A stretch of DNA of 16,168 bases from a virus: the UHGV virus genome UHGV-0141345; one strand, given 5' to 3'. Positions 2,245 to 8,897 of this stretch are shown here, in pieces. How positions within the stretch are numbered: position 1 is the stretch's first letter; every line of letters starts with the position of its first letter. The notes under the pieces are model-generated. The model was given only the letters and a program-made list of their open reading frames with translations. It was not told where the DNA came from and did not search any database. A program made the translations under genes and the position numbers.

Positions 2245-3240
2245 GTGACCGTGAGAGCACTACTGACCCCTGAAATTGCCCCGCGTATGGGGATCGTATT
2301 GTTCAGGCCAGGTTCAGAGCTGATGCCCCTGTTTATGCAGGGGCGTGTCCTGCTGGAGCCTGAGCCGGAACGTTATTCATCTTTCGCCAGTGGTGCCGTT
2401 CCGGCGGCATCACAACCGCTGGCGGATGATCCTGCCGTTCGGGCCGTGTTCCGCAATGAGGAAGTGATCCGTCGTGCTGGTGGCGTGGAATGTCTTGAAA
2501 GCTGGTTACTTCGTGAAAAAGGCTGCCAGTGGCCTCATTCCGACTGGCACAGCGAGAACATGACAACAATGCGACACGCGCCGGGCGCAATCCGTCTGTG
2601 CTGGCACTGCGATAACCAGCTGCGCGATCAGTTCACGGAACGGCTGGAATCAATGGCAACGGATAACTGTGCCCGCTGGGTGTTGTCTGTTGTGCGTCGG
2701 GATCTCGGTTTTGATGATAGTCACGTTGTGACAATGCCGGAACTGTGCTGGTGGCTGATTCGTAATGACCTGGCGGATGCCTTACCGGAAAGTGCAGCCC
2801 GTAAGGCACTGAGATTACCGAAGCCTGTTGTGCCGTCTGTCACCCGGGAAAGTGACCTTGTGCCTTCGGTTCCTGCCACCAGCATCATCCAGGATAAGGC
2901 GAAAAAGGTGCTGGCGCTGAAAGTGGATCCGGAGTCGCCGGAGTCTTTTATGTTACGCCCAAAACGTCGCCGCTGGGTTAATGAAAAGTACACACGCTGG
3001 GTTAAGACACAGCCGTGTGCATGTTGTGGAAAGCCTGCTGATGATCCCCACCACCTGATAGGCCACGGTCAGGGGGGAATGGGTACAAAAGCGCATGACC
3101 TCTTTGTGTTGCCTTTGTGCAGAAAGCATCACGACGAGCTGCATGCGGATACCGTGGCATTTGAAGAGAAGTATGGCTCCCAGCTGGAGCTGATATTTCG
3201 TTTTATCGATCGTGCGCTGGCAATTGGCGTGCTGGCCTGA
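2245..3240 (+). CDS. DUF968-like phage protein with C-terminal Cys/His (HNH-like) metal-binding cluster
   Basis: 331 aa ORF starting at GTG 2245 directly after the upstream stop; start uncertain (in-frame ATG at 2287). C-terminal CACCGKP...HHLIGHG...H[12 protein letters not shown] motif. Sits immediately upstream of Q, as DUF968 genes do in E. coli lambdoid prophages. Confidence 0.7.
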
Positions 3241-3707: not shown

Positions 3708-4154
3708 TTAAGGTTTTAATTCATCAAGACGTTGTTGGATAGTGTTTTTGCTTGCGTTGTCTGTTATAGCCATTTGTTGTACTTGCCCCATTGCCATTTG
3801 AGTTTCCATCCACATATCGGCCCACACTTTTGTATCGTTATTAACTTGAGCGATAGTAAATCTGACTTTTGATACCGGGGTTGTTGAATAGGCATTGCCG
3901 ATTAACATTTGTCCAAAAACAGCAGAGCCGCCTTCCAGTTCTTTACCACATATAACACTGCTGTTATCCGCGTTGTAAATTATCAACCCTCTACTATTGC
4001 AGTAATTCACAAGGGCATCTTTGACTTTATCTTTTGTCATATTTTGATAAACCCCCTCAGGTTTTCCTGATTGAGTTTTCTTTATCAATGGTACGGAAGA
4101 AGTACAACCTGAAATGATAGTTGCGCTAAGTAATAGTACAGTCATTTTATTCAT
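3708..4154 (-). CDS. Hypothetical lipoprotein (accessory gene convergent with Q)
   Basis: 148 aa. N-terminus MNKMTVLLLSATIISGC has a signal peptide and lipobox (ISG|C). The gene and surroundings are visibly AT-rich relative to flanking phage genes. No family recognised. Confidence 0.65.
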   Translation of the reverse strand: MNKMTVLLLSATIISGCTSSVPLIKKTQSGKPEGVYQNMTKDKVKDALVNYCNSRGLIIYNADNSSVICGKELEGGSAVFGQMLIGNAYSTTPVSKVRFTIAQVNNDTKVWADMWMETQMAMGQVQQMAITDNASKNTIQQRLDELKP

Positions 4155-4778: not shown

Positions 4779-5831
4779 ATGAAAAACACTGTAAAAATAA
4801 ACAGTGTTGATTTAATCAACGCTGATTGCCTGCATTTTATTCAGTCCCTGCCTGATGATTCCATTGACCTGATTGTTACCGATCCGCCGTACTTCAAGGT
4901 GAAACCCAACGGCTGGGACAATCAGTGGAAAGGGGACGAAGATTACCTTAAGTGGCTGGATCACTGTCTGGCCCAGTTCTGGCGGGTGTTAAAACCTGCT
5001 GGAAGCCTTTACCTGTTCTGTGGGCATCGCCTGGCATCTGATATTGAGATCATGATGCGTGAACGTTTCAACGTGCTTAACCATATCATCTGGGCGAAGC
5101 CGTCCGGACGTTGGAATGGGTGTAATAAAGAAAGTCTGCGCGCATATTTTCCTGCCACAGAGCGCGTTCTGTTTGCTGAACATTACCAGGGGCCATATCG
5201 CGGCAAAAGTGACGGCTATGCGGCAAAAGAAAGGGAACTCAAACAGCACATAATGGCACCGCTGATATCGTATTTCAGGGATGCTCGTGCCGAACTGGGT
5301 ATAACGGCAAAACAAATTGCCGAAGCCACAGGTAAGAAAAATATGGTTTCCCACTGGTTTGGTGCCAGTCAGTGGCAGTTGCCGAATGAGGCTGACTATC
5401 GGAAGTTACAGGCACTGTTTTCCCGTATAGCGGCAGAGAAGTTTCAGGAACAACAACTGGAACAACCACACCACCAGCTGGTGGCATCTTATGATTCACT
5501 GAATCGCAAATATTCTGAATTGCTGGATGAGTTTAAATCTCTCCGGCGCTATTTCTCCGTATCAGTCTCCGTGCCTTATACCGATGTCTGGACGCATAAG
5601 CCCGTTCAGTTCTACCCGGGTAAACATCCGTGCGAGAAACCGGCGGATATGCTCCGGCAAATAATCAATGCCAGTAGTCGACCTGGTGATCTGGTTGCTG
5701 ATTTCTTTATGGGATCCGGTTCCACAATAAAAGCGGCAATGGCGCTGGGGCGTCAGGCGTTAGGTGTTGAACTTGAGTCAGAGCGGTTTAATCAGACGGT
5801 GAAAGAGGTAAGTGAACTGGTGGGGAAATAA
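4779..5831 (+). CDS. Beta-class DNA amino-methyltransferase (N6_N4_Mtase-like; probably N6-adenine), orphan
   Basis: 350 aa. Motif IV DPPY near the N-terminus (TDPPYF) and motif I FxGSGST near the C-terminus (FFMGSGSTIKAA), the beta-class order with a central target-recognition region. DPPY rather than SPPF favours N6-adenine. No restriction endonuclease gene is adjacent. Confidence 0.85.
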   Translation: MKNTVKINSVDLINADCLHFIQSLPDDSIDLIVTDPPYFKVKPNGWDNQWKGDEDYLKWLDHCLAQFWRVLKPAGSLYLFCGHRLASDIEIMMRERFNVLNHIIWAKPSGRWNGCNKESLRAYFPATERVLFAEHYQGPYRGKSDGYAAKERELKQHIMAPLISYFRDARAELGITAKQIAEATGKKNMVSHWFGASQWQLPNEADYRKLQALFSRIAAEKFQEQQLEQPHHQLVASYDSLNRKYSELLDEFKSLRRYFSVSVSVPYTDVWTHKPVQFYPGKHPCEKPADMLRQIINASSRPGDLVADFFMGSGSTIKAAMALGRQALGVELESERFNQTVKEVSELVGK

Positions 5832-6246: not shown

Positions 6247-6723
6247 ATGCAGGCACTAAATTCCCAGCGTAAAGCTTTCCTGGATATGGTGGCATGGTCA
6301 GAAGGAACGGATAACGGACGGCAGAAAACCAGAAATCATGGTTATGACGTCATTGTAGGCGGAGAGCTATTTACTGATTACTCCGATCACCCTCGCAAGC
6401 TTGTCACGCTAAACCCCAAACTCAAATCAACAGCAGCCGGACGTTATCAGCTTCTTTCACGCTGGTGGGATGCTTACCGTAAGCAGCTTGGCCTGAAAGA
6501 CTTCTCCCCCAAAAGCCAGGACGCAGTGGCATTGCAGCAGATTAAAGAACGTGGCGCTTTACCGATGATTGATCGCGGTGATATCCGTCAGGCAATCGAC
6601 CGTTGCAGCAATATCTGGGCTTCACTGCCGGGGGCTGGTTATGGTCAGTTCGAGCATAAGGCTGACAACCTGATTGCAAAATTCAAAGAAGCTGGCGGAA
6701 TGGTCAGAGAGATTGAGGTATGA
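6247..6723 (+). CDS. R: Endolysin R (lytic transglycosylase), near-identical to lambda R
   Basis: 158 aa; from residue ~5 onward matches my recollection of lambda R almost exactly ([46 protein letters not shown]...). SD AAGGAG upstream. Confidence 0.95.
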
Positions 6724-7157
6724 GCAGAGTAACCGCGATTATCTCCGCTCTGGTTATCTGCATCATCGTCTGCCTGTCGTGGGCGGTCAATCATTACCGT
6801 GATAACGCCATGACCTACAAAGAGCAGCGCGATAAAGCCACATCCATCATCGCTGATATGCAGAAGCGTCAACGTGATGTAGCAGAACTCGACGCCAGAT
6901 ACACAAAGGAGCTTGCTGATGCTAACGCGACTATCGAAAGTCTCCGTGCTGATGTTTCTGCTGGTCGTAAGCGCCTGCAAGTCGCCGCCACCTGTGCAAA
7001 GTCAACGACCGGAGCCAGCGGCATGGGCGATGGAGAAAGCCCAAGACTTACAGCAGATGCTGAACTCAATTATTACCGTCTCCGAAGTGGAATCGACAAG
7101 ATAACCGCGCAGGTTAACTACCTGCAGGAGTACATCAGGACGCAATGCCTGAAATAA
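6720..7157 (+). CDS. Rz: Spanin inner-membrane subunit Rz
   Basis: 145 aa; N-terminus [30 protein letters not shown] matches lambda Rz. Start overlaps the R stop (ATGA). Confidence 0.9.
6919..7104 (+). CDS. Rz1: Spanin outer-membrane lipoprotein Rz1, embedded in the +1 frame of Rz
   Basis: 61 aa from ATG 6919. Signal peptide with lipobox (VVSAC) followed by a Pro-rich segment ([13 protein letters not shown]). Entirely nested inside Rz, as in lambda. Confidence 0.75.
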
Positions 7158-7188
7158 TTTTTTTGCAAATCACAAAGTCAATTTAATG

Positions 7189-7211
7189 AGCCTCGCGATG
7201 CGGGGCTTTTT
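7189..7211 (+). terminator. Rho-independent terminator downstream of Rz/Rz1
   Basis: 8-bp stem AGCCTCGC (7189-7196) / GCGGGGCT (7200-7207) with one G-U pair, loop GAT, followed by TTTT. Confidence 0.5.
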
Positions 7212-7218
7212 GCAATAA

Positions 7219-7243
7219 ATGCGTACCGCAACGCATGTTTTTT
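7219..7243 (+). terminator. Second tandem terminator-like hairpin
   Basis: Perfect inverted repeat ATGCGT (7219-7224) / ACGCAT (7231-7236), 6-nt loop, then G + T6 (7238-7243). Confidence 0.4.
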
Positions 7244-7358
7244 ACACCGAACCTGCCCCTTTGGAATGGGCCTTTGAGGATACCAGTTAGTGCTGGCGAG
7301 CCTCGGTGGGCTGGTTTCCTGTGCGGCAAAGGTTCATTTCAAAGAGTAGGTACACGCT

Positions 7359-7895
7359 ATGAAATCATTAACCCTCTTCAATCAACCAATTCGTATCGGT
7401 GAAGATGGCATGATCTGCCTCACTGATATGTGGAAAGCCAGTGGTAAAAGTGAATCTGAATCGCCTTACCACTACCTGCGAAACAAGCAGACCAAAGAGT
7501 TCTTAGCCGAGCTGGAGAAAAACCACGAATCTGTGGTTTTTACTGAGCGCGGTGTACACGGTGGAACATATGGCGGGAAGTTTGTTGCTTACGATTATGC
7601 GGCTTGGTTAAACCCCGGGTTCAAGTACGCGGCCTATAAAGTCCTCGATGACTACTTCACCGGAGAACTTCAGCATCGCAACAGCTTAAGTGCGCAGCTC
7701 AACATGAAATGTCATGAGTTTGACCAGAAGAAAGACATGGCGAGCTTCTGCGGACAAGGGCTGGCAGCATGGCGCTATACGAAGCCAGTGTTGGTCGCTG
7801 AGATTAACTCCCTGGCTAACCAGCTGCAGATAACGATCCCCGGGCTGTCCGGTATTTGCCGGTATGAAATTACCGGAAGGCGCGGTCGTTACTGA
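7359..7895 (+). CDS. KilA-N domain protein (second copy in window)
   Basis: 178 aa; KilA-N hallmarks (ICLTDMWKASGK, ERGVHGGTYGGKFVAYDYAAWLNPGFKYAAYKVL). Lies between the lysis cassette and cos. Followed by hairpin GCAGCCC/GGGCTGC at 7914-7936. Confidence 0.75.
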   Translation: MKSLTLFNQPIRIGEDGMICLTDMWKASGKSESESPYHYLRNKQTKEFLAELEKNHESVVFTERGVHGGTYGGKFVAYDYAAWLNPGFKYAAYKVLDDYFTGELQHRNSLSAQLNMKCHEFDQKKDMASFCGQGLAAWRYTKPVLVAEINSLANQLQITIPGLSGICRYEITGRRGRY

Positions 7896-8139
7896 GTAAG
7901 AGCAGGCATTACAGCAGCCCTTCACTGAGGGGCTGCGATAATGTGAGGAATAAAAAACCGGCAGGGGAAATCCATTGAAGATTTGCCGGTGGCAAAAGAT
8001 GGCCATGCTTTTAACCTTAGTAGCAGAGCTACGGAGTTCAACAACGACCGTCGCCGTTATCTTGCTGAAAGGCGTTTCAATGATTTTCATCAATTTATTC
8101 ATCAGCAATGGTGATAATCACTCTCATTTTGGCGGGTCC

Positions 8140-8330
8140 TTCCGGTGGGGTGGCCTGCCACGGGGCGGAAGGCGCGCAGGTTTTCGCTATTTATGAAAAT
8201 TTTCCGGTTTAAGGCGTTTCCGTTCTTCTTCGCCGTAACTTAATGTTTTTATTTAAAACACCCCCTGAAAAGAAAGGAAACGACAGGTGCTGAAAACGGG
8301 CTTTTTGGCCTCTGTCGTTTCCTTTCTCTG
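8140..8330. other. cos region: cosN-equivalent (~8163-8174) and cosB with R3, R2/R1 terminase-binding repeats
   Basis: The segment GGTTTTCGCTATTTATGAAAATTTTCCGGTTTAAGGCGTTTCCGTTCTTCTTCG...AAAGGAAACGACAG...CTGTCGTTTCCTTTCTCTG matches my memory of the lambda left end, ending at the Nu1 start codon. Perfect 15-bp inverted repeat GAAAGGAAACGACAG (8272-8286) / CTGTCGTTTCCTTTC (8312-8326) corresponds to R2/R1. The 12-mer at the cosN position is GGGCGGAAGGCG, not canonical GGGCGGCGACCT. Confidence 0.75.
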
Positions 8331-8351
8331 TTTTTGTCCGTGGAATGAACA

Positions 8352-8871
8352 ATGGAAGTCAACAAAAAGCAGCTGGCTGACATTTTCGGTGCGAGTATCC
8401 GTACCATTCAGAACTGGCAGGAGCAGGGAATGCCCGTTCTGCGAGGCGGTGGGAAGGGTAATGAGGTGCTTTATGACTCTGCCGCCGTCATAAAATGGTA
8501 TGCCGAAAGGGATGCTGAAATTGAGAACGAAAAGCTGCGCCGGGAAGTTGAAGAACTGCGGCAGGCCAGCGAGACAGATCTGCAGCCAGGGACTATTGAG
8601 TACGAACGCCATCGACTTACGCGTGCGCAGGCCGACGCACAGGAGCTGAAGAATGCCAGAGACTCCGCTGAAGTGGTGGAAACCGCATTCTGTACTTTCG
8701 TGCTGTCGCGGATCGCAGGTGAAATTGCCAGTATTCTCGACGGGATCCCCCTGTCGGTGCAGCGGCGTTTTCCGGAACTGGAAAACCGACATGTTGATTT
8801 CCTGAAATGGGATATCATCAAAGCCATGAACAAAGCAGCCGCGCTGGATGAACTGATACCGGGGTTGCTGA

Positions 8872-8897
<26 letters not shown>
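8352..8897 (+). CDS. Nu1: Terminase small subunit Nu1
   Basis: 181 aa; essentially identical to lambda gpNu1 as I recall it (MEVNKKQLADIFGASIRTIQNWQEQGMPVLRGGGKGNEVLYDSAAVIKWYAERD...). Confidence 0.97.

Follow-up and report, generated by a model that had tools for sequence, protein, structure and literature searches.

Genes and features between Rz and cos

The viral genome UHGV-0141345, whose 16,168 nucleotides are referred to here as the window, has a late region of the lambda-like type, with nin-type genes first and head genes last. Between the lysis gene Rz and the cos site, it carries a gene encoding a 178-aa protein with a KilA-N domain, which is preceded by a conserved leader RNA. This gene is a regular occupant of the post-Rz position in many lambdoid and P22-like phages. 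The features of the interval and its borders are the following.

Positions 6720 to 7157, plus strand: Rz spanin gene (Pfam Phage_lysis, E 1.3e-36), the last lysis gene before the slot.
Positions 7188 to 7212, plus strand: post-Rz intrinsic terminator, with a 9-bp stem (7188-7196/7200-7208), a 3-nt loop and T5.
Positions 7213 to 7361, plus strand: conserved leader RNA of ~150 nt, matched by our covariance model R1.
Positions 7359 to 7895, plus strand: KilA-N-ORF11CD3 gene, with an ATG start and a 178-aa product (phrog_129, "transcriptional regulator").
Positions 7383 to 7661, within this gene (residues 9-101): KilA-N domain (PF04383; E 1.5e-15, 57.4 bits against a gathering cutoff of 23.8).
Positions 7683 to 7841, within this gene (residues 109-161): ORF11CD3 domain (PF10549; E 2.8e-13, 50.3 bits against a cutoff of 25).
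Positions 7847 to 7943, plus strand: what is left of the 3' end of a phiP27-L33-like gene, together with the hairpin at 7907-7943 (7840-7943 is 92% identical to phiP27).
Positions 8113 to 8351, plus strand: cos region, aligned to the right and left ends of lambda.
Positions 8352 to 8897, plus strand: Nu1 small terminase gene (Pfam Phage_Nu1, E 2.2e-100), the first head gene past the slot, with gene A and the head genes next.

Because cos was placed by the lambda alignment and by the record of phage cdtI, which terminates exactly at window position 8162, the Rz-cos interval comprises positions 7158-8162.

A KilA-N domain fused to ORF11CD3

An initial annotation, made from the sequence alone, had predicted a KilA-N gene at 7359-7895. 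The open reading frame (ORF) is present, and the KilA-N match of its product scores above the Pfam gathering cutoff and spans profile positions 8-106 of 107. A domain search of the C-terminal residues, which that annotation had suggested, identified ORF11CD3 at residues 109-161 over the complete profile (positions 1-54 of 54). In the AlphaFold2 (AF2) model, which has a predicted local distance difference test (pLDDT) score of 78, a domain made of a beta-hairpin and helices is followed by two long C-terminal helices (103-131 and 136-156). As modeled, the protein is an exchangeable N-terminal DNA-binding module (KilA-N) fused to ORF11CD3, a predicted helical hairpin. The top Foldseek match in the PDB, the APSES DNA-binding domain of Mbp1, is not significant (E 0.22, TM 0.22-0.28), and nothing in the PDB was retrieved at E <= 0.001. 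Likewise, a PDB sequence search with the 178-aa protein returned nothing meaningful, NCBIfam gave no matches, and no nuclease motif was found with Pfam. Literature searches on ORF11CD3, hkbK, orf201, and STnc470 located no functional study of the protein or the leader.

KilA-N proteins are also known from phage defense, and BstA carries this domain at its N terminus (PMC8585504). If our protein worked likewise, it would sense incoming phage DNA and cause abortive infection or exclusion. The shared N-terminal domain and a weak PADLOC match to the candidate family PDC-S22 (E 1.4e-8, residues 60-90) are in line with such a function. Yet this match covers ~31 residues inside the KilA-N domain, the other KilA-N protein of the window matches PDC-S22 likewise, and the PADLOC scan returned no model named BstA. 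Moreover, the C-terminal domain is ORF11CD3, common to Rha and Ant-like proteins, and a promoterless gene behind a late-operon terminator, as described below, cannot protect a lysogen. We consider a BstA-type role very unlikely.

The other KilA-N protein is encoded in the early region:

Positions 1434 to 2243: early KilA-N gene, 269 aa (phrog_129; Pfam KilA-N, E 2.4e-22).

The initial annotation was right in counting two separate KilA-N genes, the late one lying in the nonessential Rz-cos interval; the two products share 28% identity over 89 residues. It had also assigned a KilAC/ANT-type C terminus to the early protein, for which Pfam gave no match besides KilA-N at E <= 0.01. A scan of the window with R1 showed no leader copy upstream of the early gene. 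A DUF968/HNHc_6 gene (2245-3240) starts one base past its end.

The gene is widespread in the post-Rz slot

By megablast, window positions 7100-7852 are found at 94-99% identity in PhiR49_1, ECP1, and many Stx1 and Stx2 phages, always directly past Rz. Stx phages 1717 and 2851 carry a KilA-N-ORF11CD3 gene past Rz, and in the P22-like phage HK620 the ORF alone matches, corresponding to hkbK, annotated as "similar to P1 KilA." The ORF is present in 504 of 5,426 complete Escherichia coli genomes, and relatives of the protein occur in Salmonella, Cronobacter, Pantoea, Yersinia, Enterobacter, and one Erwinia phage. In its canonical form the protein has 165 aa, ending in ITIPGLPG, and the gene overlaps the next ORF, hkbL (phrog_875), via ATGA in the orientation of the late operon. 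The first 163 residues of the PhiR49_1 protein are identical to those of the window protein, and hkbK of HK620 differs from the latter only within approximately the first 16 residues. The comparison of the Rz-cos interval across lambdoid phages that the initial annotation had called for therefore yields the same gene in HK620, ECP1, PhiR49_1, and the Stx phages, and, as described next, rha in P22 and ES18. Its reading of the gene as a notable insertion does not hold; what is derived in the window is the deletion downstream of the gene.

A sensitive search with positions 7158-7400 revealed 93% identity between 7245-7371, comprising the leader and the first codons, and the sequence that precedes rha (ORF201) in P22. 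More diverged versions of the leader precede gene 79 (Rha) of ES18, gp62 of HK544 (a KilA-N protein distinct from that of the window), ORF55 of P13374, and an HNH gene of a Klebsiella phage. According to Pfam, P22 Rha and P13374 ORF55 consist of Phage_pRha plus ORF11CD3, and the C-terminal 69 residues of the window protein and P22 Rha are 35% identical. No Phage_pRha (PF09669) match was found by Pfam in the window protein. Given the same slot, leader, and C-terminal module but a KilA-N head, we class the protein as a relative of Rha by domain swap and not as a member of the Rha family.

A covarying leader RNA precedes the gene

The leader is formed by a stem, P1 (7219-7236), an A/C-rich spacer, and a long imperfect hairpin (7251-7351), followed by the ATG at 7359. 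The segment 7244-7365 folds at -48.7 kcal/mol (z -3.2), and the foot of its hairpin pairs the Shine-Dalgarno (SD) sequence: UAGGU (7347-7351) is paired at the 3' foot, where in the window its probability of being unpaired is 0.00-0.03. Across 75 distinct leaders, the SD hexamer lies at the hairpin foot, and its mean unpaired probability is <0.25 in 51% of them and <0.5 in 85%. An ORF at 7235-7402 (55 aa) was considered as an upstream ORF and rejected, since it falls in the structured leader in a different frame.

R1 detects one copy in the window, at 137.8 bits on the plus strand versus 12 bits on the minus strand, with a full-length match (model positions 1-143 of 143) that ends at the ATG. 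The window sequence is part of the R1 seed alignment and owes its score partly to this; independent copies score 110-137 bits. In the alignment fitted to the model, 97.8% of cells are paired, versus 37-51% when the partners are slid, and 17 of 28 pairs show changes on both sides. Covariation scores 0.424, versus 0.200 for shuffled alignments, and 0 of 500 shuffles reach the observed value. A model-fitted alignment is biased toward the structure; independent MAFFT alignments give the same compensations. RNAalifold recovers the same structure from 8 and from 61 sequences, with many compensatory changes and invariant U-G pairs. The compensatory double changes, the invariant U-G pairs, and the strand specificity therefore indicate selection on the RNA structure and not merely on DNA identity. 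In addition, highly conserved unpaired nucleotides suggest a further processing or factor-binding role.

Two Rfam searches with E-value thresholds returned no matching family for the leader. STnc470 (18.9 bits against a gathering cutoff of 80) was a subthreshold chance match that disappeared in a narrower search, and the subthreshold matches to isrJ and rimP involved the terminator hairpin only. The leader is thus a strongly covarying, strand-specific RNA that is apparently uncatalogued.

The leader marks a variable cassette slot

A pattern scan of IMG/VR yielded 120 loci; pooled with the loci described above, they make up a set of 135 leader copies, which comprises 81 distinct sequences and four or five sequence types. 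R1 finds 110 copies in 99 sources, including diverged ones before the late ant gene of Stx phages, before further HNH genes, and before a gene for a 140-aa protein without assigned function. The window-type leader is present in 954 of the 5,426 E. coli genomes (~18%), usually unannotated or inside over-long "Rha family" calls. An exact-pattern scan of species-representative genomes places the leader in at least 28 species, nearly all of them Enterobacterales.

Eleven protein clusters lie downstream of the leader, including Phage_pRha, KilA-N plus ORF11CD3, KilA-N plus P63C, KilA-N alone, P22_AR_N plus ORF11CD3, HNH_3, and T5orf172 proteins. Of 126 leader copies, 91 follow an Rz homolog encoded on the same strand. 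The gene preceding most of the remaining copies resembles, as judged by inspection rather than by profile search, that of a Q-like antiterminator, a lysozyme, or some other type of spanin. The window gene fits this cassette position, with Rz ending at 7157, Nu1 starting at 8352, and all genes on the plus strand. Judging by these sequences, the post-Rz slot is a variable cassette slot, defined by the leader, in the late operons of enterobacterial temperate phages.

Some phages have two leaders in one late operon; in Stx phages, for example, one lies before late ant in the lysozyme-Rz interval and one before the post-Rz gene. Two copies are seen in P13374 (locus L013, 199-344 and 1563-1705) and Ss-VASD (L016, 123-268 and 1493-1639), as well as in loci L066, L088, and L091. 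A separate observation concerns gene starts. The annotated starts of P22 ORF201 (L011, 1546-2151), Ss-VASD gp49 (L016, 1568-2134), and several RefSeq Rha genes lie inside the leader (giving VLASLGGLVS...); the true start of these genes is likely the ATG just past the hairpin.

The cassettes could be thought of as selfish elements comparable to free-standing homing-endonuclease genes, with the leader DNA serving as a landing site or homology arm and being conserved by recombination. HNH_3 and T5orf172 nuclease genes do share the slot and the leader, the mosaic breakpoints coincide exactly with the edges of the leader (7245 and ~7354), and domains of the Bro network have been noted to resemble homing endonucleases in structure (PMC10111431), which we counted in favor of this idea. 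It does not explain why 17 of 28 pairs change on both sides, why U-G pairs are invariant, or why the plus strand scores 137.8 bits and the minus strand 12, all of which point to selection on RNA; nor does the window protein contain a nuclease motif. Selfish spread appears highly improbable, although a selfish cassette and a functional RNA are compatible rather than mutually exclusive ideas.

A deletion downstream of the window gene

Homology to the canonical gene stops at position 7846, with nucleotide alignments running on to ~7852-7855, and the sequence from 7847 onward corresponds to the 3' end of a phiP27-L33-like gene. The joint (7846|7847) lies within a short CCGG-rich microhomology. phiP27 reads this stretch in another frame, which encodes a C terminus ending in CPVFAGMKLPEGAVVTE before the stop codon. 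In the window, nucleotides 7847-7895 encode a nonnative, out-of-frame tail of 15 residues, SGICRYEITGRRGRY, which replaces the last two canonical residues; residues 167-178 have pLDDT values of <50 in the AF2 model and are predicted to be disordered. hkbL and the other genes that usually lie between the KilA-N gene and cos are missing. On this sequence evidence, what is derived in the window copy is a loss of sequence past the gene rather than a gain by insertion. Recombination at short homology at 7846/7847 deleted the downstream genes and left both protein domains intact.

The identical joint is found in cdtI orf60 and phi458 Orf23 (phrog_10441), in both of which the terminators and the leader are also missing, along with the first 58 codons. 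As cdtI and phi458 are inducible phages that have lost these parts, the gene is dispensable. The configuration of 7100-8360 occurs at 100% identity in 1 of the 5,426 complete E. coli genomes, that of strain EFF60.

Such a rearranged copy may be a decaying remnant that is heading for loss and whose product no longer functions. The exchange of the 3' end for out-of-frame sequence with a predicted disordered tail would fit this scenario, as would the loss of the 5' third of the gene in the sister phages with the same joint and the occurrence of the complete configuration in one complete E. coli genome only. However, both Pfam domains are complete, including all 54 positions of ORF11CD3, only the last two canonical residues are lost, and copies in active phages have the same or almost the same leader and first 163 codons. 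We regard decay as unlikely.

Hairpins, promoters, and expression of the gene

The hairpin at 7188-7212 folds at -14.1 kcal/mol (z -3.2), and 0 of 200 shuffled sequences fold as well. The records of phi80 and mEp235 label as "terminator" a sequence that matches 7158-7211 at 100% identity, and HK97-like records carry this annotation, too. The motif occurs upstream of 75 of the 135 leader copies. With a G+C-rich stem directly followed by a U tract, this is clearly a convincing intrinsic terminator. A minus-strand promoter-like site nearby (7181-7154) is at chance level, with 1 found versus 1.4 expected.

The initial annotation had proposed a second terminator in tandem, at 7219-7243. A terminator scan does pick up the hairpin at 7219-7236 with GT6, but it is weak (-6.9 kcal/mol, z -1.7, equaled by 14 of 200 shuffles), and leader alignments show the T-run in the window lineage only and missing in most relatives; this stem is helix 1 (P1) of the conserved leader. 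The gene had also been credited with its own hairpin downstream (7914-7936). This hairpin does exist, as the core of a very stable 18-nt inverted repeat at 7907-7943 (-25.1 kcal/mol, z -5.1). Neither the terminator scan nor folding found a U tract on either strand; therefore, it is not a canonical intrinsic terminator. An element of ~50 nt containing this hairpin (7892-7943; 18-nt arms, approximately -25 kcal/mol, no U tract) is 87-94% identical in phiP27 (L007, ~2553-2601), Fels-1 (L008, 2501-2547), and several Klebsiella phages (Kp4882-3, L009, 2501-2553), where it sits between lysis and terminase genes.

A consensus scan, which weak or noncanonical sites could escape, found no sigma-70-like promoter on the plus strand in 6900-8400, and no -35/-10 elements are conserved in the leader alignments across leader types. 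Independent expression, as the initial annotation had envisaged, thus finds no counterpart in the sequence. In lambda and P22, intrinsic terminators do not stop polymerase modified by Q (by gp23 in P22); when the DNA is circular or concatemeric, late transcription passes from the lysis genes over cos and on into the head genes. Since no promoter was found, late expression by Q-dependent read-through of 7188-7212 is probable.

These results bear on whether the gene is a moron in the sense of Hendrix and Juhala, that is, an autonomous unit with its own promoter and terminator that the repressed prophage expresses to the lysogen's benefit. Hairpins bracket the gene, the interval is where lambda has the lysogen-expressed bor, and the gene is mobile among phages. 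Against these points, the plus strand of 6900-8400 lacks a promoter-like site and no such site is conserved across leader types; the hairpin at 7907-7943 has no U tract and is part of a fragment of another gene; the canonical gene overlaps the next ORF (ATGA) and is co-oriented with the late operon; and the leader masks the SD. A moron has accordingly little chance of being the right description.

Instead, we think it probable that this is a late-operon accessory gene in the rha slot, transcribed by read-through and throttled in translation by its leader, with a late DNA-binding role. The KilA-N gene would be part of the late operon, with Q-modified RNA polymerase passing the post-Rz terminator, which in the repressed prophage would keep the gene silent. 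Because the SD is paired in the hairpin, dosage would be limited at translation, so that the leader may keep a potentially harmful DNA-binding protein at a low dose in a strongly transcribed operon. Going by what is known of its family, the protein may act late, as a dispensable DNA-binding factor of the regulator or antirepressor type. It would probably serve conflicts with resident elements or the host rather than virion production, and it may be harmful if overexpressed, as Rha is in hosts deficient in integration host factor.

Several points weigh against this reading. The transcription and translation steps are deduced from sequence and predicted structure, and the promoter scan covered the sigma-70 consensus only. 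Occlusion of the SD is complete in the leader type of the window and partial in others, so the leader may instead be a site for RNase III, RNase E, or a binding protein. Simple SD masking does not account for the highly conserved unpaired nucleotides, of which the CUGUGCG internal loop is an example. The changed C terminus might compromise the protein, whose biochemical role is put forward by analogy with its family, and the exact configuration is found in only 1 of the 5,426 E. coli genomes.

More tentatively, and at somewhat less than even odds, the leader could represent an uncatalogued cis-regulatory RNA family of Enterobacterales. It would mark a slot for interchangeable, potentially toxic cassettes that encode DNA-binding proteins or nucleases (Rha, KilA-N, Ant-like, HNH, and T5orf172) and control access to it, with conserved internal loops that may bind an RNase or a phage or host protein. 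If so, it would act as a timer or dosage valve instead of a passive SD mask and would be the hitherto unexplained control point behind Rha-type toxicity.

Overall, the gene is a widespread, already annotated KilA-N accessory gene in the rha slot, and its copy in the window is a deletion derivative; taken alone, this changes nothing. The interest that the initial annotation had attached to the locus is largely lost, given that the gene is conserved at this position and no independent regulation was found. The useful outcome is the leader, a modest new lead that is absent from Rfam and unannotated in RefSeq. It offers a concrete entry point for asking how phages hold Bro-network, Rha, and antirepressor-like proteins to a low dose in the late operon, corrects start codons (P22 ORF201, Ss-VASD gp49, and several RefSeq Rha genes), and can serve as a marker for locating variable accessory slots in prophages.

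Surroundings of the slot

The initial annotation had placed cos next after the hairpin that follows the gene. It is present but lies ~270 nt further on, with a cosQ-like box at 8113-8130, cosN at 8163-8174, and cosB at 8175-8351, which in the lambda alignment is almost identical to that of lambda and reaches Nu1. The cosN overhang is GGGCGGAAGGCG, versus GGGCGGCGACCT in lambda. Six of the 12 bases differ, and the flanking cosQ-like box and cosB are lambda-like. Just upstream of Nu1 there is an inverted repeat (8271-8327; 26-nt arms, 85% complementary) in common with lambda; the Rfam matches to microRNA families at this site are due to chance.

On the other side of the slot, a Q-family antiterminator gene and a DNA methylase gene precede those for the holin, the lysozyme (6247-6723), and Rz. 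The interval between Q and the holin gene contains a 148-aa ORF without a Pfam match (3708-4154, minus strand) and the N6/N4 DNA methylase gene (4779-5831, plus strand), which occupies the same position in cdtI and EFF60. Upstream of Q, IS1 and yfdP/Q/R-type genes of E. coli EFF60 replace the KilA-N/DUF968 region of the window. Because EFF60 differs in this part, the window derives from a different mosaic relative.

Comparison with known systems

Compared with the canonical gene of HK620, PhiR49_1, ECP1, and Stx phages 1717 and 2851, which overlaps hkbL, the window has lost hkbL and the following genes. What the locus shares with the lambda bor region and classical morons is the nonessential, variable Rz-cos interval, which in lambda does hold bor and two other ORFs, in agreement with the initial annotation. 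Sequence alignment shows no similarity of 7158-8170 to the lambda bor region. Moreover, lambda bor lies on the opposite strand, whereas the window gene is co-oriented with the late operon and has no promoter that we could find. BstA of BTP1-like prophages shares the N-terminal KilA-N domain and differs in its C-terminal domain, location, and expression logic.

The late "Ant" of Stx phages (P13374 ant, Ss-VASD gp47) resembles the window protein in its ORF11CD3 C terminus and is preceded by a diverged leader that scores 64-67 bits with R1. Its N-terminal domain is P22_AR_N, however, and its gene lies between the lysozyme gene and Rz, one gene earlier than the window gene. P22 rha (ORF201) and ES18 gene 79 share with the window gene the post-Rz slot and the 5' leader, and P22 Rha also ends in ORF11CD3, but its N-terminal domain is Phage_pRha instead of KilA-N. 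Rha is described as a late-operon product that inhibits growth in hosts deficient in integration host factor (IHF) (PMC4936722, a secondary citation; annotation of ES18 gene 79). This phenotype is known for rha. A scan for the IHF consensus found no enrichment (10 matches versus 10.7 expected), and the two matches near 7358-7392 do not exceed chance.

In T4, hairpins sequester the ribosome-binding site upstream of the homing-endonuclease genes mobE and I-TevI. The suggested likeness to the window leader is that pairing of this site would limit translation of a DNA-targeting protein in a strongly transcribed phage operon. The sequences are unrelated, and the ways of relief differ: in T4, late promoters inside the hairpin provide it, and none is seen in the leader of the window.

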